Both the position numbers and the translations under genes were made by a program. This document shows positions 8,907-53,989 of a stretch of DNA of 53,989 nucleotides, piece after piece. The stretch is taken from NCBI GenBank assembly GCA_042216015.1, contig JBDGUI010000042.1, forward strand, positions 1 to 53,989. Reading direction: 5' to 3'. The notes under the pieces are model-generated. The model was not told the DNA's origin and did no database searches. It worked only from the letters and a program-made list of their open reading frames with translations. Position 1 is the stretch's first letter; every line of letters begins with the position of its first letter. The stretch is from Halodesulfurarchaeum sp. GTDB lineage: Archaea; Halobacteriota; Halobacteria; Halobacteriales; Halobacteriaceae.

Positions 8907-8984
8907 TAGCACCGAGGCACGATTCCAATTCCAAACAATTATTCGACGCATTTATTGTAGCAACCCCACCTCTTACAGGCAGGC

Positions 8985-10106: not shown

Positions 10107-10144
10107 ATCGTTCCCCACGCGGTGGCCATCGACCGTTCGATATA

Positions 10145-11740
10145 ATGACACAGGTAGAACGTGACGCGGTCGGCCCCGATCGGGAGCCGACGGTACGATT
10201 CGAAAATGTGACGAAGCGTTTCCCGGGAGTGCTCGCGAACGATCGGATCAGCTTCGCGGTCGAGAGCGGAACGGTCCATGCGCTCCTCGGCGAGAATGGC
10301 GCCGGGAAGACGACTCTGATGAAGATCCTGTACGGACTCTACACGCAGGACGAGGGGACCGTCTCCGTTCGGGGCCAGCCCTCGAAGATCGAAAGCCCCC
10401 GCGATGCCATCGACGCAGGGATCGGCATGATCCACCAGCACTTCAAGCTAATCGATCCCTTCACCGTGGCCGAGAACATCACTCTCGGATTCGCACCGAC
10501 CAGAGCAGGAGGTATTCACTTCGACCGGACGGAGGCACGCGAGGACGTCGAGCGAATCTCCGACCGATACGGCCTCAACGTCGATCCCGACGCGACCGTG
10601 GCGGACATCTCGGTGGGCGAACAACAGCGCGTCGAAATTCTCAAGTCACTGTACCGGGGCGCGGAAATTCTGATACTCGACGAGCCGACCGCCGTCTTGA
10701 CCCCTCAGGAAATCGAGGAACTGTTCGAGGTCGTCGAGGAGCTCCGGGAGAAGGGCAAGACGATCATCTTCATCACTCACAAGCTCGGCGAGGCCATGCG
10801 GATGGCCGACAGCATCACGGTCCTGCAGGATGGGAAGAACATTGGAACGGTCGACTCGGACGCGGTTAGCGAGCCGGAACTCGCCGAGATGATGGTCGGT
10901 CGGGAAGTCCTCATGGAGCGGACGAAACGACCCCAGGAGCCCGGCGATCGCGTCCTCTCCGTCTCGGAGCTTGCCGTCGAGGACCGGAGCGGGGCCGAGA
11001 TCGTCAAGGACGTCTCCTTTGCCGTCCGTGAGGGCGAGATCTTCGGGATCGCCGGGGTGGATGGGAACGGACAGTCCCAACTCATCGAGGCGATCACTGG
11101 GCTTCGCGACCCCGCCGCGGGTGACGTCAACCTCGGGGGTGAGGATATCACCGAGGAAAGTCGCCGGGAACACGTCCACCGGGGGATGGCCTACGTTCCC
11201 GAAGACCGCCAGAAGCGCGGGCTCGTCATGGACTTCGACCTGACCGAAAACACGCTCCTGGGAGTCCAACACACCGAGACGTTTGCAGCCGCGAGGGGGA
11301 TCGACTGGGAGCGGACGCGGGATCGGACCCACGAGATCGTCGAGGAGTACGACGTTCGCACGCCGAATATCAAAACGACGGCGGAATCGCTCTCGGGCGG
11401 CAATCAACAGAAATTCGTCGTCGGGCGCGAACTTTTCCGGGGCCCAGAGATGGTGGTCGCCTCCCACCCGACGCGCGGCGTGGACGTCGGGAGCATCGAG
11501 TTCATCCACGATCGCCTGCTCTCTCTGCGGTCCGACGAGACGGCGGTTCTCCTCGTCTCCTCGAAGCTCGACGAGATTCTCGACCTCGCCGACCGCGTCG
11601 CCGTGATGTACGAGGGCGAATTCGTCGACGTCGTCGATCCGGACACGGTGACCGAGGAGCAACTGGGGCTCCTGATGGGGGGAGAGCGACCGGACAGAGA
11701 CTACGAGACCGACCGAGCCATGGAGGTGGGGCGATCGTGA
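10145..11740 (+). CDS. Nucleoside/sugar ABC transporter ATPase (two NBDs)
   Basis: LLGENGAGKTT, ILDEPTAVL, LSGGNQQK, PTRGVDVG. Confidence 0.95.
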   Translation: MTQVERDAVGPDREPTVRFENVTKRFPGVLANDRISFAVESGTVHALLGENGAGKTTLMKILYGLYTQDEGTVSVRGQPSKIESPRDAIDAGIGMIHQHFKLIDPFTVAENITLGFAPTRAGGIHFDRTEAREDVERISDRYGLNVDPDATVADISVGEQQRVEILKSLYRGAEILILDEPTAVLTPQEIEELFEVVEELREKGKTIIFITHKLGEAMRMADSITVLQDGKNIGTVDSDAVSEPELAEMMVGREVLMERTKRPQEPGDRVLSVSELAVEDRSGAEIVKDVSFAVREGEIFGIAGVDGNGQSQLIEAITGLRDPAAGDVNLGGEDITEESRREHVHRGMAYVPEDRQKRGLVMDFDLTENTLLGVQHTETFAAARGIDWERTRDRTHEIVEEYDVRTPNIKTTAESLSGGNQQKFVVGRELFRGPEMVVASHPTRGVDVGSIEFIHDRLLSLRSDETAVLLVSSKLDEILDLADRVAVMYEGEFVDVVDPDTVTEEQLGLLMGGERPDRDYETDRAMEVGRS

Positions 11741-12969
11741 GCGATCGGAGACTCCCCGATCGGGTGCAATCCTTTCTCGCATTCTTCACGGAGAACTCCG
11801 CTGCCGAGCGCTTTCTCATCAGCGTCGCCTCCCTCATCGCGGCGGTGATCGTCGGGAGCGTCGTGGTCCTCCTCTCGGGCTGGGTGAAGACGTGCTCGAA
11901 TCCGGCCTTCACGGTCCCCGGCCTGGGTGGGTTCTGCTACGATCCGATCGAACTCTTCCAGGTCCTCCTGAACGGGGCCTTCGGAAATCCACTGGCGCTC
12001 AACTCGCCGCGACTCTTTACCGAGGGGTGGACGCTGCTCAACTTCTCGACGGCGATCACGCTGAAGGAGACGACACTCCTGATCTTCACGGGGCTCGCCG
12101 TGGCAATCTCATTCCGCGCGGGACTGTTCAACATCGGCGTGCAGGGACAGCTCGTCCTCGGCGGCCTCGCCGGGGCGCTCGCCGTTCTCTGGACTGCACC
12201 GTTTCTTCCCCCGACGTTTCTCGGCTCGACGTTCGCGGTGGGCATCGGCGTGGCAGTCTCGGCCCTCGCCGGCGGCATCTATGGGGCGATCCCTGGAGCA
12301 CTCAAGGCCTATGCAGACGCGAACGAGGTAATCACGACGATCATGTTGAACTTCGTCGCGACGGGGGTGGCGTTCTTCCTCGTCTCTGCGTACTTCAAGG
12401 ATCCAGCGAGCCAGAGCATCGAGACCAGGGCACTCCCCACGTTCGCCTCGCTGCCCACCGTACTCTTTCGAGAGGGAGCCCCGTTCTCGATCGTCGCCCT
12501 GCTGCTCGCGATCGGACTGGTCGGAGCGGTCTACTACGTGCTCCAGCACACTGCCTTCGGGTACGACCTGCGGGTGAGCGGTCTGCAACCCCTGGCGGCC
12601 GAATACGGGGGGGTCAACGCAAAGCGTATGATCACCTCGACGATGACCGCCTCCGGGGCGCTCGCAGGGATCGGGGGAATGCTCTGGGTGATGATGGTGC
12701 TCGGCCGCTGGCGCGTCTCCGTCCCGGCACTCGGCTTCGACGGGATCACCGTCTCGATCCTCGCAGGCAACCAGCCCCTCGCCGTGATCCCGGCCGCGTT
12801 CCTGTTCGGTGTCCTCAAGAGCGGCGGACTCTCGATCCAGTTCCAGATGGGTGTGCCGCCCGAACTCATCGGGGTGATCCGGGGGTTCATCATCCTGTTC
12901 GTCGCGATGCCGGAGTTCTTCCGAATGCTTGGAGGGTATCTCGACGTCTCGGGGGGTGAGTCCCCGTGA
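11737..12969 (+). CDS. Nucleoside ABC transporter permease
   Basis: FRAGLFNIGVQGQ, NEVITTIMLNF, GFDGITV; GTGA overlap with the ATPase. Confidence 0.92.
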   Translation: MSDRRLPDRVQSFLAFFTENSAAERFLISVASLIAAVIVGSVVVLLSGWVKTCSNPAFTVPGLGGFCYDPIELFQVLLNGAFGNPLALNSPRLFTEGWTLLNFSTAITLKETTLLIFTGLAVAISFRAGLFNIGVQGQLVLGGLAGALAVLWTAPFLPPTFLGSTFAVGIGVAVSALAGGIYGAIPGALKAYADANEVITTIMLNFVATGVAFFLVSAYFKDPASQSIETRALPTFASLPTVLFREGAPFSIVALLLAIGLVGAVYYVLQHTAFGYDLRVSGLQPLAAEYGGVNAKRMITSTMTASGALAGIGGMLWVMMVLGRWRVSVPALGFDGITVSILAGNQPLAVIPAAFLFGVLKSGGLSIQFQMGVPPELIGVIRGFIILFVAMPEFFRMLGGYLDVSGGESP

Positions 12970-14054
12970 GTTCATTTCGAGACGCAATCCCCCGGTGGCG
13001 GCGTCGGAGCGCGCTGTTTACGGCCGCCTTTTTCGCGTTCGTCTTTGCCGCGATCGTCTTTCGGACGCTGTTCCCGGAGACGACGGCCGGAACTGTCCTG
13101 TCCATCTTCGACGTCGGGTTCGTAGAACAGACGCTCGTCGCCGCGGTGCCGATCGTCCTCGCGGCACTTGGGGGAATCTTCGCAGAGAAGAGCGGCGTCA
13201 TCAACATCGGCCTCGAGGGACTGCTCATCGTCAGCGCGTTCCTGAGTATCGCCATCGTCGAGGCGATTGCAGGCAGCGGAACCGCCACCCAGACGACCGT
13301 CTGGATCGGCGTGCTGGGGGCCGTCATCGGGAGTACCCTGTTCGCCTGGCTGTTCGCGGTCGTCACGATCGATTTCAAGGCCGATCAGATCATCGCCGGC
13401 CTGGCGGTCTGGTTCATCGCACTCGGTCTTGGCCCCTATGCCAGCGTCATCATCTGGGGCCGAAAAAACAGCCCGCCGGTGACGACCGTCGACCAGTTGA
13501 CGATTCCCCTGCTCTCGAAGATCCCGGTCGTCGGTCCGATATTCTTCGACACGAACCCCTTCGTGCCGTTGATGGTGCTCGCCGTGGTCGGAACCTGGTA
13601 CGTCCTCAAGCACACGCCATTCGGGCTCTGGGTCAAGGCAAGTGGAGAGAATCCAGCGGCCCTCGACACTGCCGGTGTCGACGTCCGCCGCGTCCGATAC
13701 GTTGCGGTGCTGCTCTCGGGGGCGCTCTCCGGACTCGGCGGGGCGGGACTCGCGATCGGTCGGGTGGGACAATTCATCGGTGGCGGAGCCACGATGGTGA
13801 ACGGACGCGGCTGGATCGCGATCACGACCTACCTCTTCGGGAACTACAACCCCCTTGGCACGTTTGGAGCCGGACTGCTATTTGCAAGTCTGACCGCCCT
13901 ACAGATCCGCCTTCAGCAGGTCGCTGCAATCGAGGTGCCGAGTTCACTGATTCGGATCGTTCCCTACGTGACGGTGATCATCGTGCTGGCGCTGGTCGGT
14001 CACACGCGTATCCCGGAGGCCGCCGGGGAGCACTACGAATCCGGCGAGGAGTGA
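12966..14054 (+). CDS. Nucleoside ABC transporter permease
   Basis: EKSGVINIGLEG, GENPAALDTAG, GRGWIAI. Confidence 0.92.
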   Translation: MSSFRDAIPRWRRRSALFTAAFFAFVFAAIVFRTLFPETTAGTVLSIFDVGFVEQTLVAAVPIVLAALGGIFAEKSGVINIGLEGLLIVSAFLSIAIVEAIAGSGTATQTTVWIGVLGAVIGSTLFAWLFAVVTIDFKADQIIAGLAVWFIALGLGPYASVIIWGRKNSPPVTTVDQLTIPLLSKIPVVGPIFFDTNPFVPLMVLAVVGTWYVLKHTPFGLWVKASGENPAALDTAGVDVRRVRYVAVLLSGALSGLGGAGLAIGRVGQFIGGGATMVNGRGWIAITTYLFGNYNPLGTFGAGLLFASLTALQIRLQQVAAIEVPSSLIRIVPYVTVIIVLALVGHTRIPEAAGEHYESGEE

Positions 14055-21559: not shown

Positions 21560-22597
21560 ATGCTCGAAGACGATTTCGGTCGGGAGGTCTCCCAGGTCCG
21601 GATCTCCTTGACCGATCGTTGCAATTTCGACTGTGTCTACTGTCACAATGAGGGGCTTGGAGATACGCGGGGACCGATGGACCCCCAGGAAAACGAGATG
21701 ACCGCCGACGAGGTGATCCGCTTCCTGGAGGTGGTGGCGAAGTTCGGCATCGAGAAGGTCAAATTCACCGGCGGGGAGCCGATGCTTCGCGAGGACCTCG
21801 AGGAGATCATCGAACGGGTTCCCGAGGGAATGACCCCCTCGCTGACGACCAACGGGACCTTTCTGCCAGACCGGGCCGAGGACCTGAAAGCTGCCGGACT
21901 CGAGCGGGTCAACGTCTCCCAGGACGCCCTCGACGCGGAGGCGTTCAAGGAGATCACGAAGAGCGGGGCCTACGAGCGCGTGCTCGAAGGGGTCAGGGCC
22001 GCAGTCGACGCGGGTCTGACGCCGGTCAAGCTCAATATGGTCGTCTTCGAGCGGACGGCCCACCACGTCGAGGACATGGTCGACTTCGTCGGGGAGAACG
22101 ACGGGTTGCGGCTCCAGCTCATCGAGTTCATGCCCGAGCTGGTCAACAAGCCTGAATGGGCAATCGACATCGACCGGGTGCACGACTGGCTCTCCGAGCG
22201 AGCCGATCGGGTCGAGGTCAGGGAGATGCACCACCGGAATCGCTACTGGGTCGACGGCGGCATGGTCGAGATCGTCGACCCAGTCGAGAACCGCGAGTTC
22301 TGCGAGAACTGCCATCGCGTGCGGGTGACCCCGGACGGCCGGCTCAAGGGCTGTCTCAACCGGACGGATGACCTTCGCTCGATGGGCGAAATGAACCGCG
22401 AGGAGATCGAGGCCACGTTCAGGGAGACGGTCGCGAACCGCGTTCCCTACTACGGCGCGTACATGGTGAAAGACGAAGACGGCGAGTGGGTCGAAAACGA
22501 GGCCTACGCGAATTCGGCGACCGATGCCGAGAAGACAACCGACCCGGAGACGACCGAGATCCCGATTTCCGCCCCGGTTCCCGCAGAGGACGACTGA
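21560..22597 (+). CDS. moaA: GTP 3',8-cyclase (molybdopterin biosynthesis)
   Basis: [22 protein letters not shown]-terminal [18 protein letters not shown]. Confidence 0.95.
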
Positions 22598-42104: not shown

Positions 42105-43038
42105 GGGTGTGTTTAGAGGCTTGAAATCATGGGTTTCAGAGCCTGATCGCGGCTTCAATATTTTTCACGGCAGCTTTGAGCACGATTTCACGGAACTGAC
42201 CGAACCAGGTTCTCGCCCGAATCGTGTCGTCGAAGCGACGACGTAACGACGCAAAAACTGACTCGACGACCGATCGACGATGGTAGGTTTCGTCGTCGAT
42301 CCGAGCGTTGTGAGCTGCGTCGAGCGAGGAAAATTCACGATGCTTAATTACCGGTCTCACGCCTTCTTCCCGCAGATATCGGCGGAATTTATCCCAGTCA
42401 TATCCTTTGTCTGCAGTGATCGTTTCGACTCGGTGTAAATTTCGTTTCAACACCTGCCAGCCGATCTGCGTATCATGCGGTTGTGTCATCGAACAATGTA
42501 TATCTAGTATCAGACTGGTCGAACAATCAATCAAGGCTGTCGTCTTCACCGATCTAAAGGTGTAATTCGTCCGATTTGCGTAGTACTGGCTGGCAGCGAC
42601 CCGATCGAAGCCGGTTGCGTCGATTGCCTGGATCTCGCCGGTTTCCTGGAGCTGAGCAGATAACCGAAGCATCACCCGCCAGATCCGCATTTCTAGGTCC
42701 TGCTTACGCGTACACACGGTGGTGAAATCGGGGAGTTCAGCCACAGACAAGTCGAATTTCCCAACAATCCCCGGCATCTCGGACAAGACATCCATGAGCC
42801 GTCGATATGGATGCCCGAGGTACTCGCGAAGGCCGTGCAGTCCCACGATTACCCAGTCGGCGTAGCCGCCTTCACCCTTCTGAACCGGTGCTTCGTCGCC
42901 GTCACCGACGGCTTTTTTGGCAAGTGACACAACTTTGCTCGTGAAGCGGGAGAGTTTCGAAGGCACACTCGACTTTTTCCGCTTCACCTTCTAGTAATCC
43001 CGACATTTAGGCAATATTACTAGCGTCTAAACACGCCC
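42105..43038 (-). mobile_element. IS5-family (ISH1-group-like) insertion sequence, 934 bp
   Basis: 17-bp imperfect terminal inverted repeats GGGTGTGTTTAGAGGCT (42105-42121) and AGCGTCTAAACACGCCC (43022-43038), 15/17 match, enclosing a DDE transposase. Confidence 0.88.
42136..42987 (-). CDS. IS5-family DDE transposase
   Basis: PDFTT, AIDATGF, TADKGYD, YHRRSVVESVFASLRR. The start may be the GTG at 42966. Confidence 0.92.
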   Translation of the reverse strand: MKRKKSSVPSKLSRFTSKVVSLAKKAVGDGDEAPVQKGEGGYADWVIVGLHGLREYLGHPYRRLMDVLSEMPGIVGKFDLSVAELPDFTTVCTRKQDLEMRIWRVMLRLSAQLQETGEIQAIDATGFDRVAASQYYANRTNYTFRSVKTTALIDCSTSLILDIHCSMTQPHDTQIGWQVLKRNLHRVETITADKGYDWDKFRRYLREEGVRPVIKHREFSSLDAAHNARIDDETYHRRSVVESVFASLRRRFDDTIRARTWFGQFREIVLKAAVKNIEAAIRL

Positions 43039-43314: not shown

Positions 43315-45612
43315 CTAGCGGGTTGATCCGTCCGTTTCAAAGCGATCTCGAAACATTCGAGTCGGTGCTGGGCCGTATGCCTCGACCAGCAGTTGGAGCG
43401 TCCTGCCGAGAGCCCGGATCGCCGCGGTTCTCGAGACGAACCCGAGTTCCGCAGCGACGCGGTCCCACGATTGTCCCTGGAGCAGGCCGCGAATGAGGAG
43501 TCGGGCTTCCGTATCCGAGAGTTCCGCTCCCCCGTCGATCAGGCCGTAAAGGGCCAACGTTCGGAACGGTTCGGGGTCGACGCTGTACAGGCCAGGACCG
43601 AACGCCGCTCCGACGATAACACGCCACCTGTGTGCTGAAAAGGACACCGCCGGAGGATGGGTGCTCGCCTCGAGGACGGCGCGGATGACAGCCGGGTCGA
43701 CGTCCGCGAGTGAATCCCGGAGAACGCCCTCGATTCTGGTTCCGAACCAGTTCCCGTGAGCCTTGACGAGTGATTCACCCCATTCGGAGGCGGATTTCAG
43801 CATCAGCACTGAGTGTTCGCCGCTTCGCTCGTTACGGCTGGTCGAGAGGTGCACGGATTCGTAACCGTTTGCCTCCCAGAAGGAGACGAGTTCCGGGGTC
43901 GCGCCGAAGCCCGTCCCGAGCCAGTCTACGACCGGACCGAATTCGTCCTCGACGCGGGAGAGCAGGTGGCTTCCCACCCCACGGGATCGAACCGCGTGGT
44001 GGGTGGCGATCCGAACGATCCGGATGCCCACGGATTTTCCGGCCCCCTCGTCGCGGAGCTGGCTCATCAACACATCCGGGAGCATGTTCCCCCGGATCCG
44101 CTCTCCTACATACACCCGCTCGCGAATATCCGGCGGAAGCCCACCCTCGCGGGCGACCAGGGCGACGGCGACGACGTGACCGTCCCGGAGGAGCGCCCGA
44201 ACCGCGAGGTTCGAGCCATCGAGGAGTCTGGCGAGATCGTCCGGTTCGGTCCGGTAATGGGCCGTCACGAGCAGGCCGAACACCTCCCGGAGGAGCTGTT
44301 CGTTCCGGCGAAGCATTGCTGGATCGAGACGCCGATACGTGACGGACTCGGGCCATGCGTCCTCGATGACGGAGCCCGGAACGGGTCCGGCCCCGAGAAA
44401 CAGTGCCCGAGTGGCCCAGACCTCGACAGGATCGCCGGCCGCATAGCGAATCGGTTCGGTGAGCGAAACGTCGAACACCTCGTGACGGGCCGCCTCGAGA
44501 CTGGGACGAAAGCGGACCGCAAACCCCCGGCCCGACCCCTCATAGCCGTGGACCGTCGTGGTGTAGACGACTCGCGGGACCGAGAGCGTCGTTTCGAGAA
44601 TCGACACCGGCAGGGCAGCGGCCTCCTCTACGAACAGCACGGCCGCCGATTCCAGCCGTTCTCCCCGGTCCGTCGGGCTCACGAACTCGATCTCGCCGCC
44701 ACTCTCGGCCTCGATCCTGGAAGTGGGCGAGCCCGCCGTGGACCGAATGCCGTCGAGAGTGGGCAGCACTTCCAGGATCCGTTCGAAAAACGCCATCGCT
44801 GCCCGAGAACTCGGTCCGGTGACCAGGACCGACTCGCCGTTCGAGAGGAACCAGGCGGCGAGGAGGCCAGCGACGCTCGATTTACCCCGCCCCCTGTCGG
44901 CCTCGAGGACGGCAGCAGTCGGTCCCGTCGAGAGCGATGTGAGTTCCGCAAGCGCATCGGCCTGATCCTGGGTGAGACACGCTTCGATGAGGGGCGCTGG
45001 GACGGGGTCGGCCCCGGTGGGTCGCTCGATCGTCGGTGGTTCCAGCCGCGGGGCCTGCCCGGTTAGTCCGGTCCGGGGAACGCTCCCGTCATCGAGATCG
45101 ACGATGGCGATTCCCCGATGAACCGAGAGCGTTTCGACGAGTCGATCGCGAAAGTGACCGGTAACGTCCGCTATGGTATCAGGCGGCACCAACAGCGTCT
45201 CGTCGAACCCGTCGCGTCGTTCGGCCCAATCATCGAGCGGCGGCGTCAACAGGATCAGCAAGCCACCGCCGTCGACTGCTCCCACGACCGTTCCGAGATT
45301 GTTCGGCCGGCAGGCCTCCCGGCAATCGAGGACGACGGCCGTCCGCGTGGTTCCGAGCAGCTCACCCGTTCGGTCCGAAGCGAGGTGTTCGCAGGGAAGC
45401 CCCGACGGCGGGCCGACCACAGTCGTTTGATCGAAAACCGACTCCGGAGCCAATTCCGGACCCGCTGCTTCGAGAGCTGACCGGGCCGCCTCGGAGTGCC
45501 CCGATTCCCCGGCGAGGACGAGCAGTCGGCGCTCGTCGTGCCTGACAGCCTCCCGGGCGAGGTCGCCGACCCACTCCCAGTCCATCGACGGGAGTTGTGT
45601 GCGCCGGGACAT
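43315..45612 (-). CDS. tmcA: tRNA(Met) cytidine acetyltransferase
   Basis: GAVDGGGL, ADRGRGKS, TTTVHGYEGSGRGF, AHYRTEPDDL, IVRIATH GNAT domain. Confidence 0.94.
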   Translation of the reverse strand: MSRRTQLPSMDWEWVGDLAREAVRHDERRLLVLAGESGHSEAARSALEAAGPELAPESVFDQTTVVGPPSGLPCEHLASDRTGELLGTTRTAVVLDCREACRPNNLGTVVGAVDGGGLLILLTPPLDDWAERRDGFDETLLVPPDTIADVTGHFRDRLVETLSVHRGIAIVDLDDGSVPRTGLTGQAPRLEPPTIERPTGADPVPAPLIEACLTQDQADALAELTSLSTGPTAAVLEADRGRGKSSVAGLLAAWFLSNGESVLVTGPSSRAAMAFFERILEVLPTLDGIRSTAGSPTSRIEAESGGEIEFVSPTDRGERLESAAVLFVEEAAALPVSILETTLSVPRVVYTTTVHGYEGSGRGFAVRFRPSLEAARHEVFDVSLTEPIRYAAGDPVEVWATRALFLGAGPVPGSVIEDAWPESVTYRRLDPAMLRRNEQLLREVFGLLVTAHYRTEPDDLARLLDGSNLAVRALLRDGHVVAVALVAREGGLPPDIRERVYVGERIRGNMLPDVLMSQLRDEGAGKSVGIRIVRIATHHAVRSRGVGSHLLSRVEDEFGPVVDWLGTGFGATPELVSFWEANGYESVHLSTSRNERSGEHSVLMLKSASEWGESLVKAHGNWFGTRIEGVLRDSLADVDPAVIRAVLEASTHPPAVSFSAHRWRVIVGAAFGPGLYSVDPEPFRTLALYGLIDGGAELSDTEARLLIRGLLQGQSWDRVAAELGFVSRTAAIRALGRTLQLLVEAYGPAPTRMFRDRFETDGSTR

Positions 45613-45670
45613 GGGCGTTTCCCTCGTGCCTTCCGATTCCGCTCGTGGGCCCTCCCCCGTTTGGACACGC

Positions 45671-45785
45671 TTTTAAGCACGGGGTGCCGACTCAGGAATA
45701 CACCTCGCAGGGGTCGATGATGCTCCCAGCCCCAGGATCGAACGGCGGGGGAGCGAAAGCCCCTCTGTGAGAATGGTGATCCACT
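45671..45785 (+). promoter_or_regulatory. TATA box and structured 5' leader of rpl7ae (kink-turn-like)
   Basis: TTTTAAG at 45671; GCTCCC/GGGAGC and GGGGT/GCCCC helices around a CGATGAT/GAAA internal loop; GGTGA SD-like motif at 45775. Confidence 0.55.
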
Positions 45786-46148
45786 ATGCCAGTATACGTA
45801 GACTACGACGTTCCAGCCGACCTCCAGGATCGGGCCCTCGAGGCTCTCGAGGTCGCCCGAGACACCGGACGTATCAAGAAGGGGACAAACGAGACGACCA
45901 AGGCCGTCGAACGCGGCAACGCCTCGCTCGTCTTCGTCGCGGAGGACGTCTCCCCCGAGGAGATCGTCATGCACCTCCCCGAACTCGCCGACGAGAAGGG
46001 GATCTCGTGTGTCTTCGTCGACACACAGGACGACATCGGCCACGCCTGCGGCCTCGAAGTCGGGAGCGCGGCAGCCGCCATCGTCGACGACGGTGACGCC
46101 GAGGCCGACGTCGAGGACATCGCGACCAAAATCGAGGACCTGCGATAG
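45786..46148 (+). CDS. rpl7ae: 50S ribosomal protein L7Ae
   Basis: [29 protein letters not shown]. Confidence 0.97.
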
Positions 46149-46150
46149 CG

Positions 46151-46375
46151 ATGAGCGCTGAGGAATCGACTGAGGGCTCGACACCCGCCGAGGTCATCGA
46201 GATCGTCGGGAAAACCGGCATGCACGGCGAGGCCATGCAGGTGAAGTGTCGAATCAAGGAAGGGTCGAACCAGGGGCGCATCATCACGCGCAACGCCCTC
46301 GGTCCCGTCAGGGTCGGGGACGTCTTGCAGCTCCGCGAGACGGCCCGCGAGGCCGACTCCATCGGTGGTCAATGA
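46151..46375 (+). CDS. rps28e: 30S ribosomal protein S28e
   Basis: [24 protein letters not shown]. Confidence 0.96.
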
Positions 46376-46554
46376 TGCCACAGACACGCACCTGTGATTA
46401 TTGCGGTGACGAAATCGATCAGGGAACCGGCACGATGTACGTCAAGAAGAACGGCGAGACGACGTACTTCTGCTCCTCGAAGTGCGAGAAAAACGCCGGA
46501 CTCGGTCGCGAATCTCGCGACGTTGAGTGGGCCGGGCAGCGCGAGGACGAATGA
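46372..46554 (+). CDS. rpl24e: 50S ribosomal protein L24e
   Basis: CDYCG..I..GTG.MYV....[10 protein letters not shown]. Confidence 0.95.
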
Positions 46555-47006
46555 CGGAGCGAACCTTCGTCATGGTCAAGCCGGATGGCGTCCAGCGAGG
46601 ACTCATCGGGGAGATCGTCTCGCGGTTCGAGGAGCGCGGGCTGAAACTGGTCGGCGCGAAACTGATGCAGATCGATCAGGAACTCGCCGAACAGCATTAC
46701 GCCGAACACGAGGACAAGCCCTTCTTCGAAGCCCTCACGGGTTTCATCACCTCGGGCCCCGTTCTCGCGATGGTATGGGAGGGACAAGACGCGATCGCCC
46801 AGGTCCGGACGATGATGGGTGCGACGGATCCGGCCGAAGCTGCCCCGGGCACTATTCGCGGTGACTTCGGGCTGGACCTCGGTCGGAACGTCATTCACGG
46901 GTCGGACACCGAGCCCGGGTCCGCCGAGCGAGAGATCGACCTGTTCTTCGAGGCGGACGAACTCGAGGACTACGATCGCATCGACGAGGCTTGGCTCTAC
47001 GAGTAG
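46551..47006 (+). CDS. ndk: Nucleoside diphosphate kinase
   Basis: [31 protein letters not shown]. Confidence 0.97.
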
Positions 47007-47054
47007 GCAAATTTCAGTGAAAGGCGGTTTTCCGGGGCGGACGAACGACCAGCT

Positions 47055-47566
47055 ATGGAGTTCGAGGTCGGAAAGGGAGGCATCGCCGAACAGTTCGCGG
47101 GCTGTCTCGTGAACGCGGCGAGAACGAGTATGGGATCCGGCGTGGCCGGGGCGCTCCGTCGTGGGGAAAGGGGCCCGATCAACGAGGCCGCAATGGAGCA
47201 AGGGCCGATCGAAATCGGCGAGGTGGCTGTCACCGACGCGTTCGAACTCGATGCCGAGGACGTCATTCACGCCGCCGCGATACCTCACTTCGGTGACGGC
47301 ACGGCGAGGGCGAGAGCATCGAGCAGGCAACGAAAAACGCACTCGAAACCGCCGACGAACTGGGCTGTGAGTCGATGATGATCCCGGCTCTCGGGTGTGG
47401 GGTCGCCGGGTTCCCCCTCGAGAAGGGGGCCGAAATTATCGGGGAAACCATAGCCGAATTCGAGGCGGAAACGCTCGAGGAGGTGGTGTTCATCGCCTAC
47501 TCCAACGGGGAGTACGAAGCCGTCGAGCGCGTGACCGAACCGTACCGACACGAGGGGGTCGGTTGA
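47055..47566 (+). pseudogene. Macro domain (ADP-ribose-binding) protein, frameshifted
   Basis: LVNAA..MGSGVAGAL and VIHAA lie in one frame. ESIEQATKNALETADELGCESMMIPALGCGVAGF continues in the -1 frame from about 47312. Confidence 0.8.
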
Positions 47567-47727: not shown

Positions 47728-48333
47728 ATGTCACAGAGCACTAACCAAACGCCTCGGTCCCTGGAACTCGGCCTGTCCGTCAGGCCGACACAGGAGTGTC
47801 CCGTACGAATGCTCGCACCCAACGTATCAGAAGTCCGTCATCACCCCCACGAGAGGGGGCTCCAGTGTGAAATCCTACTCGCGGGCCAGGATTCGGATTT
47901 TCCCCGGCGGTATCACACCTTCAATGACGGTAAGGCCCCCTGTCCGGCGACAATCTTTAGAGAATACGACACCGTACCGAATGTCAAACGCGTCGAGGAT
48001 GATTCGCTCTTGATCGTCACTCACCCACCGTCCCGTGAAGCCGTTCAGAAGCTATTGAGCGATCTCGAGACCGTCTCCGATCGAGTCGAGATCAAGTGGA
48101 TCTCCGATTCAGCCGAGACGAGGACGACCTCGGAGCGAACCGTCGATCTCGAGATCTTGACCGAAAAACAGCGGGAGGCCATCGAACTGGCCGTCGAATC
48201 GGGGTATTACGACCAGCCACGAGCGACGACAATATCCGAACTGGCAGAGGCCTGCAATATTAGCCAGTCGGCCATGTCACAGCGGCTTCACACGGCCGAG
48301 CGGAAATTGCTCCAGAGAATTCTCTCTCAGTAA
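47728..48333 (+). CDS. Bat/DmsR-type (HTH_10) transcriptional activator
   Basis: C-terminal LTEKQREAIELAVESGYYDQPRATTISELA..ISQSAMSQRLHTAERKL; N-terminal Cys residues (ECP, QCE, PCP). Confidence 0.85.
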   Translation: MSQSTNQTPRSLELGLSVRPTQECPVRMLAPNVSEVRHHPHERGLQCEILLAGQDSDFPRRYHTFNDGKAPCPATIFREYDTVPNVKRVEDDSLLIVTHPPSREAVQKLLSDLETVSDRVEIKWISDSAETRTTSERTVDLEILTEKQREAIELAVESGYYDQPRATTISELAEACNISQSAMSQRLHTAERKLLQRILSQ

Positions 48334-48527: not shown

Positions 48528-49259
48528 ATGGACGAGCGTCATGGCAACGACCGACCCGAGCCGGCAGTGCCGGACGGCGGGACCTCGCGGCGGAACTTCC
48601 TGAAAGGGGCCGCCGTCGGGGCCGGCGTCGTCGGGACAGGGGGCACAGCGGGCGTGCTCGCATTGAACAACGAGGATACGGGCCAGTCGGCGAAGGCGAT
48701 CCCGGCCTCGGAAGGGTATCTGCTCGTCGACCCGGCGAAGTGTACCGGGTGTACGAGTTGCATGATCGCCTGTTCGACGGCCCACGAGGGGAAGGCGAGC
48801 CAGTCACTGGCGAGAATCCAGATCACCCAGAATCCCTTCGAAGGCTTCCCGGAAGATATCAGTCAGGAGCAGTGTCGACAGTGTACCTATCCGGCGTGTG
48901 TGGAGGCCTGCCCGACGGGCGCACTCGAGGCCGACGAGGAGAACGGCAACGTCCGAATGGTCGACGAGAACAAATGTGTCGGCTGTCAGCGCTGTCTGGC
49001 GGCCTGCCCGTATACGCCCCACCGGAACACCTGGAACCACGAGAAGCAGTACGCACAGAAGTGTGATCTCTGTGCGGAGACGCCCCACTGGGATCAAGAA
49101 GGCGGCCCGGACGGCTCACAGGCCTGTGTCGAGGTCTGCCCGGTCGGGGCGATCCAGTTCACGGATGAAATCCCGACTCAGGTCGGGAACGAGGGATACC
49201 AGGTGGATCTCCGAAGCGAACAGTGGGAGCAACTCGGCCTCTACGGAGGTGAGATCTGA
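48528..49259 (+). CDS. Tat-signal 4x[4Fe-4S] electron-transfer subunit (DmsB/YdhY-like)
   Basis: SRRNFLKG twin-Arg motif; 16 Cys in four groups (CTGCTSCMIAC, CRQC..PACVEACP, CVGCQRCLAACP, KCDLC..ACVEVCP). Confidence 0.9.
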   Translation: MDERHGNDRPEPAVPDGGTSRRNFLKGAAVGAGVVGTGGTAGVLALNNEDTGQSAKAIPASEGYLLVDPAKCTGCTSCMIACSTAHEGKASQSLARIQITQNPFEGFPEDISQEQCRQCTYPACVEACPTGALEADEENGNVRMVDENKCVGCQRCLAACPYTPHRNTWNHEKQYAQKCDLCAETPHWDQEGGPDGSQACVEVCPVGAIQFTDEIPTQVGNEGYQVDLRSEQWEQLGLYGGEI

Positions 49260-51316
49260 TGAACGGACACATGGGGAAGATCCTTCGATTGGACCTGACG
49301 AATCGAACGAGTTCGACGATCGACACGAGCGAGTACGAGGAGTGGGTCGGTGGACACGGAATGGGCTCGGCCATCTTCTTCGACCTCGTCGATGACAAGA
49401 CGGTGGACGCGTTCTCGGCAGAGAACGTCATCACGATGATGACCTCGCCGCTTGCCGGGACGTTGGCTCCAGCTGCGGCGGGGCGTACCGAAGTGCAGGG
49501 AATTAGCCCCCAACCCTACCCGACAGAGTGGTTCAGTCGGAGTAATTTCGGCGGACGGTTCGCGGGAATGTTGAAATATGCCGGCTATGACGGGATCGTC
49601 ATCGAGGGGAAAGCCGACAAACCAGTGTGGGTCAACGTTGTCGACGATGAAGTCACCTTCGAATCCGCCGATTCGCTTTGGGGAATGAGTACGTGGGAAA
49701 CCCAATCAGAGATATGGAACGAGGTCGATCACGGTGACGGCTGGCAGCACCTGGATTCAGGTCGTGACACGGGCCAAACGACCCAGCCACCAGCCATCGC
49801 GACAATCGGTCGGGCGGGAGAGACACAAACCAGAATTGGCGCGATTATACACGACGCGGGTAACGGTGCCGGGAATGCTGGATTCGGTTCGGTCTGGGGC
49901 TTCAAGAATCTCAAGGCCGTTAGCGTCCTCGGGACTGGCAGTATCGAGATGGCCGATCCATCCAAATTGATCGAAGATCGAATCTGGTCGGAAACAAACT
50001 ACGGATATGACCTCGAGGAACCACCGACCCCATCAAACTACTCGTTCCCGGGTGCTCCGGGAAGCGGTGCCAGTTCCATCGTCACAGAACCGAGCCGGGC
50101 CACCGGGTGCATGGGCTGTCACAAGAATTGTAGAAAACGCACAGCCAGTACGAGAGGGAATGAAAGTACGTGTGTCGACGTACTTTGGTACGATGCCCAT
50201 GACAAGGCCGTTCATGGAGAATATACCATCGAAACCGCAAAAGCAGCTGATCTCGCCCAAAAGTTCGGTATCAACACCTACAGTCTCGAAGCAGGCCTGC
50301 TCTATTTAAAAGACCTGCACAAAAAAGGGGTCCTTGGACCTGACGCTGAAGTGAAGGCCGACCTTCCGTGGGAGGAATTCGGCGAGGCATCGTTCCCCGC
50401 AGAATTAATTCGAAAAATTATCGAACGGGAGGGAATCGGGGCCGATATAGCCGAAGGATTCGCCAGAGCTGCTGAAAAGTGGGGACGGCTTGAAGAAGAT
50501 TTGGCCTCCGGAATTCTCCCGCTTCAATATTGGGGATACCCACAACACTACGACGCCCGCACCGAGGTCGAATGGGGATACGGAAGTATCCTTGGAGAGC
50601 GTGATATTAACGAGCACGACTTCAATTGGGTGGTGTACTGGCAGCCGAGTATCGCAAAGCTCACGGGCACAGATCCGATAATTAGCGCGGAAGATCTTGC
50701 AGGCCTTATCAAAGAGAAGACCACCCCATACAACGTCGTGCCGGATTATAGCGATGAGGGTATCTATTCGGAAAACATGGCCCAGTTGGTGGCCTGGCAT
50801 CGGCATTACACTCGCTTCTGGAAACAGTCGGTGCTCTACTGTGACTGGGCCTACGCCGACTTCGTGAATCCTTACGGAGAGGGAATGTCCGGACTTACTC
50901 CGGAAGGCGAGCCAAAATTCTTCAACGACGTGACGGGGATGGACCTTACCTTTGAAGAGGGGATCGAAAAGGGACGAAAGATCTGGAACCTTGATCGGGC
51001 CATCTGGACGCTGCAAGGGCGCCACCGAGATCAGGAGGAATTGTCAGAATATACCTACGACATAGGAGCTACTCCAGGGTACACGACGTACGAAGTCCCA
51101 TACTGGGTTCCGGTTAAAGAAAACGGAACTTGGGAGTTCAAAAACGTTTCCGGGCGAACACTGGACAAACAGAAGTTCAATGACTGGAAGTCGAAATTCT
51201 ACGAGTTCGAAAATTGGGACACGGAGACAGGACGGCCCACCCGTTCGGCGCTAGAAGATCTCGGGCTCGGAAACGTTGCAGACGAACTCGACGCTGCAAA
51301 CAAACTTCCGAGGTGA
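49259..51316 (+). CDS. aor: Aldehyde:ferredoxin oxidoreductase-family W/Mo-pterin enzyme (YdhV-like)
   Basis: GKILRLDLT, SNFGGRFAGMLKYAGYDGIVIEGKA, IGRAGE, G.KNLKAV, Fe-S motif CMGCHKNC plus distal Cys, G.PTRSALEDLGL. No signal peptide. Confidence 0.9.
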   Translation: MNGHMGKILRLDLTNRTSSTIDTSEYEEWVGGHGMGSAIFFDLVDDKTVDAFSAENVITMMTSPLAGTLAPAAAGRTEVQGISPQPYPTEWFSRSNFGGRFAGMLKYAGYDGIVIEGKADKPVWVNVVDDEVTFESADSLWGMSTWETQSEIWNEVDHGDGWQHLDSGRDTGQTTQPPAIATIGRAGETQTRIGAIIHDAGNGAGNAGFGSVWGFKNLKAVSVLGTGSIEMADPSKLIEDRIWSETNYGYDLEEPPTPSNYSFPGAPGSGASSIVTEPSRATGCMGCHKNCRKRTASTRGNESTCVDVLWYDAHDKAVHGEYTIETAKAADLAQKFGINTYSLEAGLLYLKDLHKKGVLGPDAEVKADLPWEEFGEASFPAELIRKIIEREGIGADIAEGFARAAEKWGRLEEDLASGILPLQYWGYPQHYDARTEVEWGYGSILGERDINEHDFNWVVYWQPSIAKLTGTDPIISAEDLAGLIKEKTTPYNVVPDYSDEGIYSENMAQLVAWHRHYTRFWKQSVLYCDWAYADFVNPYGEGMSGLTPEGEPKFFNDVTGMDLTFEEGIEKGRKIWNLDRAIWTLQGRHRDQEELSEYTYDIGATPGYTTYEVPYWVPVKENGTWEFKNVSGRTLDKQKFNDWKSKFYEFENWDTETGRPTRSALEDLGLGNVADELDAANKLPR

Positions 51317-51321
51317 TAATC

Positions 51322-51693
51322 ATGCGACTCACACAACCAGAGGAAGCGGTGAAATCCGCGCTCACTGAGGAGGTAGAGTACGAAGAGCACTTCATCGGGC
51401 ACAAAGCCCATGCGATGGCGGGAAGTTCCAAGATGCGACTCTACTCGCTCGAAGAAGTCCTGAACTTCATCCACGTTGATGATAGGGAGAAACTTCTCGA
51501 AACGGGGTCTGGCGGGACCATTGGATATGTCGATTTCGGCGAACTTGCGGATTGGACCAAAAACGTGCTCGGGGACGATGAGTTAGCTTCCGCCATCATT
51601 GAAACAGCATCGGACGGCGATAATTACAAAGAACAGGCCGAGGCGGTTTCGAGTCTCATCAACGAGCGACTGGAACAGGCTCGGGAGGACTAA
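51322..51693 (+). CDS. Small acidic hypothetical protein within the AOR operon
   Basis: 123-aa ORF with 5-bp and 4-bp gaps to its neighbours and an AGGTGA SD-like site upstream; DFGELADWTKNVLGDDELA segment. Confidence 0.75.
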   Translation: MRLTQPEEAVKSALTEEVEYEEHFIGHKAHAMAGSSKMRLYSLEEVLNFIHVDDREKLLETGSGGTIGYVDFGELADWTKNVLGDDELASAIIETASDGDNYKEQAEAVSSLINERLEQARED

Positions 51694-51697
51694 AATA

Positions 51698-52585
51698 ATG
51701 CGCTGGAAACGACCCTTGATCACTCTCGGTTTGCTCGTCACCTTCGTCGGCGGGTATCTGTTCGCCGAGAAAGCAGCAGAGCTGTATCTCTGGCAAGCCT
51801 TTGAATCCGGATCGTACATCTACGACGTGCTGTTCGAAACGCTGACCTGGGTCCTTCCCGCAACTATCGCGGGAGGACTGTTCTTCGGCGCGATCCACGC
51901 CGCCTACTCGGATCCCGAACCCACCATCCGAGAGGGTCTCGTCCGTCGCCACGAGGCTTTCGGGGCCTTCTTCGAGCACTGGGCGGCCACCGTTGGAATG
52001 CTTTTTCTCATCGGCTCTGGAGTCTTGCTGGGCTTCCTCTTCGTGCCCCGATTTGTCAGCACGACAGAAACAGTGGGCCTAACGATCAACGTTCACTGGG
52101 CAGGAGCGGCCATTCTCTTGTTCGCAGCATCTTACCACCTCGGTGGCCTCATCATGGGAGACCATCGTGAAATCCTGCCAAAATCAGGCGACCTCAAAAA
52201 CGCTGTCAGAAACGTGGCAAGCTATCTCCGACTGGGCAACGAACCAGAGGCGGAGAAGTACCTCCCGATTCAGCGGGTGAGTTACCTGATCTGGGCAGGG
52301 TTGATCGCCGTCGTCGCGATAACGGGGCTCGTGAAAGCTGCTGACTACCCCTGGGAGGTTGGTGGGGGGTTGATGTCGGCGATGACATATTTGCACGATA
52401 TCTTTGCCCTGTTCACCATTCTGTTTCTGGTTGCACACGTCGGAGCTGTCCTCATGCCGTCGCACCTCCAGCAGCTCCGGTCCCAGATCACTGGATGGAT
52501 ACCAATAGAATACGTTCGGTCCCACCACTCACGATGGCTCCCAGAACAGACTGGATCTAATAAGTCAAAGAGTGGAGGCGATTGA
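51698..52585 (+). CDS. Di-heme cytochrome b membrane anchor (FdnI/YdhU-like)
   Basis: Four His in TM helices (FEHW, NVHW, YLHD, VAHV), KY.P.QR, ITGW...HH..W; two extra N-terminal TMs. Confidence 0.87.
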   Translation: MRWKRPLITLGLLVTFVGGYLFAEKAAELYLWQAFESGSYIYDVLFETLTWVLPATIAGGLFFGAIHAAYSDPEPTIREGLVRRHEAFGAFFEHWAATVGMLFLIGSGVLLGFLFVPRFVSTTETVGLTINVHWAGAAILLFAASYHLGGLIMGDHREILPKSGDLKNAVRNVASYLRLGNEPEAEKYLPIQRVSYLIWAGLIAVVAITGLVKAADYPWEVGGGLMSAMTYLHDIFALFTILFLVAHVGAVLMPSHLQQLRSQITGWIPIEYVRSHHSRWLPEQTGSNKSKSGGD

Positions 52586-52595
52586 TAAAAACCAC

Positions 52596-53921
52596 ATGCA
52601 ATCGGTACTTCTCGTCAACGCCCCGGTCGGTGAAACCTCGGCAGGTAGCCATGCAGCCCTCCACCCGCCGCTCGGTCTCGGGTATATCGGAGCCGTCCTT
52701 CGAGAGCGCGGCCACACTGTTTCAGCGCGTGACCTGAACGTGACCGGAATGAGTGGGGCTGTCGTCGAACGGGCGGTCAAACGAAGCGACGCGGATGTCC
52801 TCGGCATCTCGGCCCACACGGAAACCTATCCAAACGCGCTCGAAATCGCTCGCACAGCCACTGACGTGAACCCGGACCTGACTGTCTTGCTGGGCGGTCC
52901 CCACGCCAGCGTGAACGACGCGGAAGCAGCCACAGTCGAGGCAATTGACTACGTCGTCCGGGGTGAAGGAGAACTGACCACGGCTGAGCTGGTCAAGACG
53001 ATCACTGAACGGAGCGATCCAGAAGCAGTCGACGGGATCACGTTCGAGCGGGACGGCCAACTGATCCAAACACCCGACCGACCGTATATTCAAGATCCGA
53101 CCGAACTCCCGTTTCCAGCCCGTGATCTGTTCCCGCTAGAACTGTACCAACATCCGGGTAACATGCTCTTCTCAAGAGGGGGATGTCCGTTTCAGTGCCA
53201 TTTCTGTGCGGTCAACAACATCTGGGGCGATGGAATGCGCCGATACAGAGCAGTTGAGGACGTTCTCGAGGAAGTGAAGTTACTCGTCGATAAATATGGG
53301 TTCAAGCAGATCAACTTCGCGGACGACACGTTTACCCTTCGACGAGACAGGACAGAAGCGCTACTCGCAGAACTTCGGGACCTCGATACGCGGCACTCCT
53401 GGAATTTCACATGCTCGACGCGAGTAGATCTGGTCGACGGAGATCTCTTGGAGACCCTCGCCAAAGCGGGGTGTTCCGGAATTCAGTTCGGGGTCGAGGC
53501 GGGCTCCCAAAAGATCCTCGATTCGATCGGGAAGAAAATCTCGCTGACAGAAGCCAGGGATGCAATCGAAGCCGCTGTCGACCTCGACATGGACGTCCTG
53601 GCTTCCTTCATGTTTCCACATCCTGACGATACGGAAACGACGATACGCCAGCAGGCTGCCTTCATGCGAGATATCAAAGACACTGGGGCCGCGATTTCAC
53701 TGGCCTTCACCACCCCGTATCCGGGAACAGTGTACGACGAATACGTGAAAAACGGCGATATCGAAGTGAGAGCCGATAGCTATGACGAATACGACGCCAA
53801 GCACCTTATAATAGACACGAAGAACCTCTCCTTCCAAGAGGTAGAACGGCTGAGGGACGAAGTCATCGAAAAAAGTGGGCTCAAGAAACGTACGTCCACG
53901 ACGACAGCGACTGGGCCCTGA
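52596..53921 (+). CDS. Cobalamin-dependent radical SAM protein
   Basis: B12-binding domain (PPLGLGYIGA, LGIS, LGGPHA, GEGE) plus SRGGCPFQCHFC, FADDTF, GVEAGS, PYPGT. Confidence 0.92.
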   Translation: MQSVLLVNAPVGETSAGSHAALHPPLGLGYIGAVLRERGHTVSARDLNVTGMSGAVVERAVKRSDADVLGISAHTETYPNALEIARTATDVNPDLTVLLGGPHASVNDAEAATVEAIDYVVRGEGELTTAELVKTITERSDPEAVDGITFERDGQLIQTPDRPYIQDPTELPFPARDLFPLELYQHPGNMLFSRGGCPFQCHFCAVNNIWGDGMRRYRAVEDVLEEVKLLVDKYGFKQINFADDTFTLRRDRTEALLAELRDLDTRHSWNFTCSTRVDLVDGDLLETLAKAGCSGIQFGVEAGSQKILDSIGKKISLTEARDAIEAAVDLDMDVLASFMFPHPDDTETTIRQQAAFMRDIKDTGAAISLAFTTPYPGTVYDEYVKNGDIEVRADSYDEYDAKHLIIDTKNLSFQEVERLRDEVIEKSGLKKRTSTTTATGP

Positions 53922-53989
53922 TTAGGTCCACTTCAGCACCAACAACCGCTCGAACGGAAACGACTCCTCCCTGACCGTCTCGACTTCGA

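Follow-up and report, generated by a model that had tools for sequence, protein, structure and literature searches.

A B12-binding-domain radical SAM protein that accompanies one clade of Cys-ligated, Tat-linked AOR-family oxidoreductases in Halodesulfurarchaeum and in distant archaea and bacteria

The stretch of DNA analysed here (the window) is the 53,989-nucleotide contig JBDGUI010000042.1 of Halodesulfurarchaeum sp. (GCA_042216015.1), that is, the entire contig C10 of an assembly (G000) of 1.68 Mb that consists of 51 contigs and is 86.6% complete. Close to its end lies an operon for an oxidoreductase of the aldehyde:ferredoxin oxidoreductase (AOR) and tungsten-containing oxidoreductase (WOR) family, the last gene of which encodes a radical S-adenosylmethionine (SAM) protein with a B12-binding domain (52596..53921, + strand; Pfam B12-binding and Radical_SAM), hereafter the rSAM. 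Homologs of this rSAM were found beside one clade of AOR-family genes in distant archaea and bacteria, and this pairing is consistent with a dedicated accessory role.

All the genes of the operon lie on the + strand. Behind a gene for a likely regulator, the first structural gene (48528..49259) encodes a WorS/YdhX-like poly-[4Fe-4S] subunit (the iron-sulfur or FeS subunit; Pfam Fer4_7 and Fer4_11) carrying a signal for twin-arginine translocation (Tat; Pfam TAT_signal, residues 19-38, E 5.9e-5) and sharing 87% identity with its counterparts in the loci L005 and L006. It is followed by the AOR/WOR-family catalytic subunit of the Cys-ligated type (49259..51316; Pfam AFOR_N E 2.4e-52, AFOR_C E 7.1e-35), a conserved protein of 123 aa that belongs to no Pfam family (51322..51693; motifs LxxPS, GDxELA and RLxQC) and a membrane cytochrome b of the Ni_hydr_CYTB/FdnI type (51698..52585; PF01292, E 1.8e-14), presumed to be a quinone-linked membrane anchor, whose ATG start at 51698 is consistent with a 295-aa open reading frame (ORF) in L005. 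The genes are tightly packed: those for the FeS and AOR subunits overlap, and the subsequent intergenic gaps measure 5, 4 and 10 nt, the last being the distance from the cytochrome b stop to the rSAM start (52585 to 52596) that the preliminary description of this DNA had given. The gene for the likely regulator, ahead of these (47728..48333), encodes an HTH_10 protein (E 2.4e-19) with a weak DmsR_N-like N-terminal domain (E 3.1e-6, 27.8 bits against a cut-off of 27); L005, L006 and L027 likewise keep it upstream.

The rSAM ORF spans 52572-53921 (+), and since the N-termini of the homologs agree with it, the ATG at 52596 was taken as the start, giving a protein of 441 aa. Pfam placed a B12-binding domain (PF02310) at residues 21-132 (E 6.9e-23, 81.2 bits versus a cut-off of 32.1) and a Radical_SAM domain (PF04055) at residues 196-351 (E 1.1e-24), the latter including the cluster motif C197-x3-C201-x2-C204 (CPFQCHFC), which was invariant in 24 of 24 aligned homologs. 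The intact B12 domain and CxxxCxxC motif noticed earlier were thus borne out. The motif within the Radical_SAM domain places the protein in the radical SAM superfamily, and the N-terminal Rossmann-like B12-binding domain, together with a fold resembling those of TsrM, TokK, CysS and OxsB, places it in class B. An AlphaFold model built from the 24-sequence alignment (mean pLDDT 87.4) returned AprD4 (E 1.8e-21), MgmA (PDB 9ccb; E 5.8e-21), CysS, TsrM, TokK and OxsB as its best Foldseek matches. From its domains the rSAM is predicted to bind cobalamin and to transfer a methyl group, and the genome also encodes CobS and CbiB, which we count toward the accessory role considered below. The fold by itself is no ground for assuming cobalamin binding, because a related domain occurs in AprD4, the closest relative of solved structure, which binds no cobalamin according to a review on B12-dependent radical SAM enzymes (PMC12931638). 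No signal peptide was found on the rSAM.

In the NCBIfam comparison, the rSAM stayed below the curated cut-off for all 24 listed families, including HpnJ, BchE, ApyD, MJ_0865/MgmA, HpnR, PhpK and AprD4. The highest partial scores were those for HpnJ (162 bits, cut-off 577.6), BchE (160.8 bits, cut-off 481) and ApyD (160.5 bits, cut-off 750), which extended over nearly the full length and yet fell far under the cut-offs; to our knowledge, none of these three adjoins AOR genes, and the window rSAM is a family separate from them. In a library clustered at 50% identity, a handful of representatives scored above about 480 bits among 23,681 with E <= 1e-30, indicating that the rSAM family is tight and lies well apart from the bulk of class B enzymes. 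A search of longer proteins for fused forms gave only four distant matches (31-35% identity), joined to unrelated domains, and family members of 504-533 aa proved to carry low-complexity inserts and not fusions.

The preliminary description had the rSAM closing the operon, and the sequence on its 3' side was examined accordingly. As had been claimed, the last 68 bases of the window contain no ATG, GTG or TTG on the + strand. Read on the minus strand (53922..53989), they form the 3' end of a convergent gene for an NPPY-motif methyltransferase (C-terminus …FPFERLLVLKWT*). This gene lies outside the operon, and its encoded C-terminus matches that of the protein encoded at L005:11833-12435(-), for which Pfam reports Methyltransf_11 and MTS. 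The remainder of it was found where contig C22 of this assembly ends (G000:C22:24550-25128), and the two contigs therefore abut, with C22 reversed. In two genomes of the same genus (G011 and G002), the rSAM gene is likewise followed on its 3' side by the convergent methyltransferase gene and then by genes for a KsgA-type rRNA dimethylase and a DUF655 protein. The genes beyond the rSAM are thus convergent housekeeping genes, so that the rSAM ends the operon and opens no downstream locus.

G011 and G002 hold the full operon in the same order, with rSAM proteins 90% and 53% identical to that of the window. The base composition of the operon differs from that of its surroundings: GC content was 0.53-0.59 over the genes for the AOR, the small protein, the cytochrome b and the rSAM (from about 49500) and up to 0.63 in the FeS gene region, as compared with 0.63-0.67 in the housekeeping genes just upstream of the operon (43500-47500). 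Likewise, GC at third codon positions fell from about 0.8-0.85 in typical genes of the window to 0.78 in the FeS gene and to 0.62-0.67 in those for the regulator, the AOR, the cytochrome b and the rSAM. These lower values suggest that the operon, including the rSAM gene, may be a horizontally acquired island. Elsewhere in the window, a DDE transposase gene (42136-42987) and an integrase gene (219-1199) were noted.

To view the linkage from the side of the rSAM, pattern scans with the 24-homolog alignment were used, which collected 20 loci in species genomes and another 74 in metagenomes. They yielded 73 full-length rSAM copies, or 68 after removal of five exact duplicates (L039, L041, L077, L095 and L025); near-duplicate contigs were kept in the tree, and its rows are hence not independent. 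The FastTree phylogeny of the 68 sequences comprised one clade of 62 rows (support 99) that contains every AOR-linked copy. Flanks were too short for judgement in 14 of the 62 rows, and among the 48 judgeable ones 43 had an AOR-family gene within 3 kb, on the same strand in 36 and on the opposite strand in seven. Two rows lacked an AOR gene despite at least 1.5 kb of upstream flank, one of which (L036) has just 45 bp downstream, where its nearest relatives keep the AOR gene. The last three rows (two copies in L018 and one in L061) adjoin Mo-enzyme and FAD-subunit genes of the xanthine dehydrogenase (XDH) family instead; these loci also encode an uncharacterised protein of 354-388 aa, and directly upstream in L018 lies a gene whose GcvH-like product bears a Tat-lipoprotein signal. 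Among the organisms that carry linked loci are Dehalococcoidales, Coriobacteriia, Acidobacteria, Chloroflexota, Rokubacteria and uncultured archaea.

The remaining six rows of the tree form an outgroup at 36-38% identity to the window rSAM, in which no AOR gene was found. Two of the six are preceded by a gene for a PqqD-like protein, an arrangement known from systems that make ribosomally made peptides with post-translational modifications (RiPPs); among the scanned loci it was seen in L092, L095 and L099 (also L025), at 36% identity. These neighbours, and the presence of ApyD, a RiPP model, among the three best partial NCBIfam hits, are what would speak for regarding the rSAM as a chance neighbour of the oxidoreductase or as part of a separate RiPP-type locus. 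We consider this highly improbable. The downstream locus of this kind that the preliminary description had named as the finding that would overturn its proposal is replaced by convergent housekeeping genes, the window operon showed neither a PqqD gene nor a precursor-like ORF, the PqqD neighbours are confined to the outgroup, the rSAM gene begins only 10 nt after that for the cytochrome b, and the AOR linkage recurs in several phyla.

The linkage was also examined at the level of whole genomes. In the 61 genomes sampled from the order to which the window belongs, searched with thresholds of E <= 1e-30 for the rSAM and E <= 1e-40 for the AOR, the rSAM was present in three (G000, G002 and G011), and the AOR in the same three and in G040. 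In a second sample, consisting of 81 genomes of the order of G061 that were at least 80% complete, four had an rSAM at E <= 1e-120, and the same four, with no others, gave AOR matches of at least 540 bits, another genome reaching only a weak match of 369 bits; in AOR-rich genomes of this sample 14 candidates per genome were scored, so that some copies may have been missed. In both samples, therefore, the rSAM occurred only where the AOR clade was present, and the co-occurrence check proposed in the preliminary description bears out the linkage. G061 itself encodes three rSAM copies, each next to its own AOR.

We then characterised the AOR-family partner. The window enzyme combines AFOR_N and AFOR_C domains with the four cysteines of the [4Fe-4S] cluster (C284, C287, C291 and C528), of which C284, C287 and C528 are invariant in the AOR alignment, and is thus a member of the AOR/WOR family. 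A further cysteine, C305, aligned with C322 of BamB in a profile-to-PDB alignment and with C336 of YdhV in a MAFFT alignment, and a cysteine occupies this position in 28 of 28 partner-clade sequences. According to passages of a review on tungsten enzymes (PMC12096430), this residue serves as a metal ligand in BamB and YdhV, and other AOR/WOR enzymes lack it; its presence assigns the window AOR to the Cys-ligated group. Most partner-clade sequences have, two positions past this cysteine, an acidic residue (C-[VI]-[DE]) that the YdhV clade lacks; this position corresponds in the alignment to Glu313 of the P. furiosus enzyme. A motif LQGRHRD around residue 587 was likewise specific to the partner clade. 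In the AOR phylogeny, the rSAM-adjoining enzymes formed one clade of 34 rows (support 86, with a 29-row core at 100), and E. coli YdhV, which shares 25% identity with the window AOR and stands in WorL clade 41 of the WOR classification (PMC13328260), fell into a separate clade together with the more distant second AORs of some loci. Two further AOR-family genes were noticed in G000 (C13:11776-12444 and C8:36478-37053), one of which lies in a 1089-aa open frame; both are placed outside the rSAM-partner clade.

Twin-arginine motifs were found by regular expression in 24 of 35 distinct N-termini of FeS subunits, a count that misses motifs inside the aligned part, such as that of the window FeS subunit with its Pfam TAT_signal match. 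In the classification of WORs (PMC13328260), Class V is marked by a Tat signal on WorS, by membrane association or by both, and the window operon shows a TAT_signal domain as well as a cytochrome b gene. By this criterion the partner AORs are of the 'Class V' type, that is, putatively Tat-dependent and membrane-associated. According to that paper, Class V WORs make up more than 10% of the AOR family and none has an assigned activity or physiological role. In its Tat-signal FeS subunit, membrane cytochrome b and metal-ligating cysteine, the window system resembles YdhV, the Class V WORs and BamB, but the E. coli ydh operon encodes no rSAM. The label 'AOR' of the preliminary description therefore stands with respect to the family, as its AFOR domains attest, and falls with respect to the classical cytoplasmic aldehyde:ferredoxin oxidoreductase, since the metal-ligating cysteine and the Tat signal of the FeS partner set the window enzyme apart from that type.

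As regards solved relatives of the rSAM itself, the MCR glutamine C-methyltransferases of the MgmA/MJ0865 type (MCR, methyl-coenzyme M reductase; PDB 9ccb, TIGR04014) are compact two-domain class B enzymes of about 420-450 aa, and MgmA ranked among its top matches by sequence profile (E 6.2e-26) as well as by fold. Since MgmA acts on a residue of a large metalloenzyme, it serves as the working model here. The window protein nevertheless differs from it, scoring 114.7 bits on TIGR04014 (cut-off 360) with an identity of about 20% across the fold, and its genomic partner is an AOR-family enzyme in place of MCR.

On the basis of these features, the rSAM would be a class-B-type enzyme dedicated, as an accessory, to one clade of W or Mo enzymes of the AOR/WOR family, namely exported ones with a Cys ligand. 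Because the FeS subunit carries a Tat signal, the AOR-FeS module would be folded and loaded with its cofactor in the cytoplasm and then exported through the Tat system, after which, in the window archaeon, it would dock on the cytochrome b. Lacking a signal peptide and requiring SAM as well as a reductant, the rSAM would itself act in the cytoplasm. With a cytoplasmic rSAM and a constant partner that is assembled in the cytoplasm and exported by Tat, the rSAM may be a maturation enzyme acting before export, introducing a radical-mediated change that would most likely be a cobalamin-dependent C-methylation. We give about an even chance to its being such a cytoplasmic, pre-export maturation enzyme for the oxidoreductase or its pterin; as to the target, the polypeptide of the catalytic subunit is a tentative candidate and the metallopterin cofactor a more doubtful one. 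The occurrence of the enzyme-modifying MgmA among the compact relatives and the PqqD contexts in two of the six sister-clade rows count toward this maturase role. The preliminary description had proposed a dedicated maturase of the oxidoreductase, its pterin cofactor, a quinone or the substrate; its testable part, the linkage, is supported, and the role itself stays putative. The general radical SAM step of pterin synthesis is encoded separately, since a MoaA-type gene (Radical_SAM and Mob_synth_C) was noted at 21560-22597 of the window, 26 kb upstream of the operon. A functional analogy is provided by the anaerobic sulfatase-maturating enzymes, cytoplasmic radical SAM proteins encoded beside exported sulfatases that they modify before export. 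The analogy ends with function, as those enzymes belong to the SPASM subfamily, have no B12 domain and differ in chemistry and target.

Several observations weigh against a maturase devoted to the AOR. The operon of G040 (L027; G040:C1:2183000-2201000) keeps the regulator, FeS, AOR, small-protein and cytochrome b genes at 47-49% identity without an rSAM gene, no rSAM was found at E <= 1e-30 anywhere in this 98% complete genome, and in the AOR tree its enzyme branches from within the archaeal subclade linked to the rSAM; the enzyme can thus persist without the rSAM, which is dispensable at least there. In place of the rSAM gene, L027 has a 1.7-kb AT-rich stretch without long ORFs (11495-13192), followed by genes for a coiled-coil protein and an XPB-type helicase, and it looks as if the rSAM was lost through insertion or deletion. 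A fourth high-scoring AOR of G061 (C2:702546) likewise has no adjoining rSAM. The rSAM is, moreover, more conserved (44-53% identity across domains) than the AOR partners are (29-48%), and its best solved match in both sequence and fold is AprD4, a small-molecule diol dehydratase without cobalamin. Finally, the XDH-linked rSAM subclade makes a target found only in the AOR polypeptide, such as an AOR-specific residue, less plausible than one common to pterin enzymes or than a shared class of substrates.

The last two of these points bear on a different function, in which the rSAM would be a pathway enzyme acting on a small molecule and transforming the substrate or product of the oxidoreductase, for instance by an AprD4-like radical dehydration yielding a carbonyl that the AOR oxidises or reduces, or by methylation of the compound. 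The radical SAM 1,2-diol dehydratase AprD4 (PDB 6fd2), whose own substrate is an aminoglycoside, matched the rSAM with a profile E of 3.6e-36 and a query-normalised TM score (TMq) of 0.76 at similar length. The separate rSAM copies of G061, each with its own AOR paralog, would fit substrate-specific modules, the sensor kinase/response regulator pairs that we noticed upstream in Dehalococcoidales loci would suggest induction by a substrate, and the link to two unrelated pterin families (AOR and XDH) could mean a shared substrate class. The AprD4 match was, however, restricted to the radical SAM half of the window protein (positions 163-418 in the sequence profile), the rSAM scored only 102.5 bits on the AprD4 model NF033070 (cut-off 500), and its N-terminal domain lies far over the Pfam B12-binding cut-off (81 versus 32 bits). 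With the partner exported and the rSAM cytoplasmic, the membrane would also stand between the two steps. In addition, most radical SAM reactions use up SAM stoichiometrically, which would be costly in an energy-yielding pathway. The resemblance to AprD4 nonetheless keeps such a pathway role a real, if unlikely, candidate.

The cytochrome b gene directly upstream of the rSAM gene, in the window and in several further loci, raises the question of whether the rSAM tunes the potential of the membrane quinone, or of a comparable electron carrier of the cytochrome b, by methylating it to suit this respiratory module. Genes of the Peptidase_U32 family, which includes the O2-independent ring hydroxylases of quinone biosynthesis, might be read in the same direction, since they adjoin the rSAM in some lineages (L007:7358-8833, L029:537-1784, L083:5864-6961, L078:1891-2988 and L080:1655-2749). 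The U32-family genes, which recur beside the rSAM or beside a second type of AOR, fall into two unrelated groups; an ORF at L009:15421-16641 has no Pfam match and was put with them on account of about 50% BLAST identity. Many linked loci, however, consist of FeS, AOR and rSAM genes without a cytochrome b (for example L012, L014, L015, L016, L048, L049 and L055), and the rSAM tracks the AOR clade and not the cytochrome b. Furthermore, the known C-methylases of menaquinone belong to class C, not class B, of the radical SAM enzymes. Tailoring of a quinone thus appears improbable, well below the action on a small molecule.

In maximum-likelihood trees, the window rSAM grouped with bacterial copies (support 95-97), and its AOR with archaeal ones. 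Given that an all-archaeal rSAM clade was not rejected by the approximately unbiased test (p 0.19), we make no claim of gene replacement from this incongruence. Some loci had unusual rSAM arrangements. An archaeal single-cell genome (L019) carries tandem rSAM copies at 8623-9948 and 10001-11290, after one set of FeS, AOR, small-protein and cytochrome b genes; the copies are 36% and 43% identical to that of the window, and one has an in-frame TAA. In L020 and L063, the rSAM match is broken into two parts that lie in different frames; the two records share this layout and match almost identically, and the break reflects either a frameshift or an assembly error.

The 123-aa protein encoded between the AOR and cytochrome b genes matched no Pfam or NCBIfam family, and no signal peptide was seen on it. 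Its family comprised 23 ORF hits, including that of the window, located between the AOR gene and the rSAM or cytochrome b gene. Although its structure was predicted with a pLDDT of 92.6, a Foldseek search with the model gave no PDB match at E <= 0.001. The uncharacterised OrfY was considered as a fold relative and rejected, the best VIA-align Z of 6.8 being within the chance range, and an Atlas match to DUF5752 was weak and is noted as a lead only. Possible roles are those of a chaperone for export or assembly and of an adaptor for the rSAM.

A description of the pairing was not found in the literature searched on AOR, YdhV or tungsten in combination with radical SAM, B12 or cobalamin. The words 'radical' and 'cobalamin' are absent from the main text of the WOR classification paper (PMC13328260), according to whose methods SAM-like neighbours were excluded, and its neighbourhood tables could hold the pairing unremarked. 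The main text of the Halodesulfurarchaeum genome paper contains none of 'radical SAM', 'AOR' and 'cobalamin', and the pairing is not mentioned in the searched passages of the tungsten-enzyme review (PMC12096430) and the B12-dependent radical SAM review (PMC12931638).

We suggest, with somewhat less than even confidence, that this rSAM family represents the first dedicated radical SAM maturase of a pyranopterin enzyme beyond the MoaA step, which would place a methyl group or another radical modification on the active site or the metallopterin and would be needed for the respiratory reaction of a third, undescribed clade of Cys-ligated, Tat-exported AORs. For one Class V-type clade, the conserved B12-type rSAM partner offers a concrete handle; it predicts a modification that could be found by mass spectrometry, and dependence on it may explain the difficulty of making such enzymes active in foreign hosts. 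Through the pairing, the enzyme-directed chemistry of class B radical SAM proteins, until now seen with methyl-coenzyme M reductase, would reach pterin enzymes as well. The pairing is carried by sulfur-respiring haloarchaea and by Dehalococcoidales and Coriobacteriia, all noted for uncommon kinds of anaerobic respiration, and its recurrence across distant archaea and bacteria suggests a helper step, not described before, for exported W or Mo oxidoreductases.

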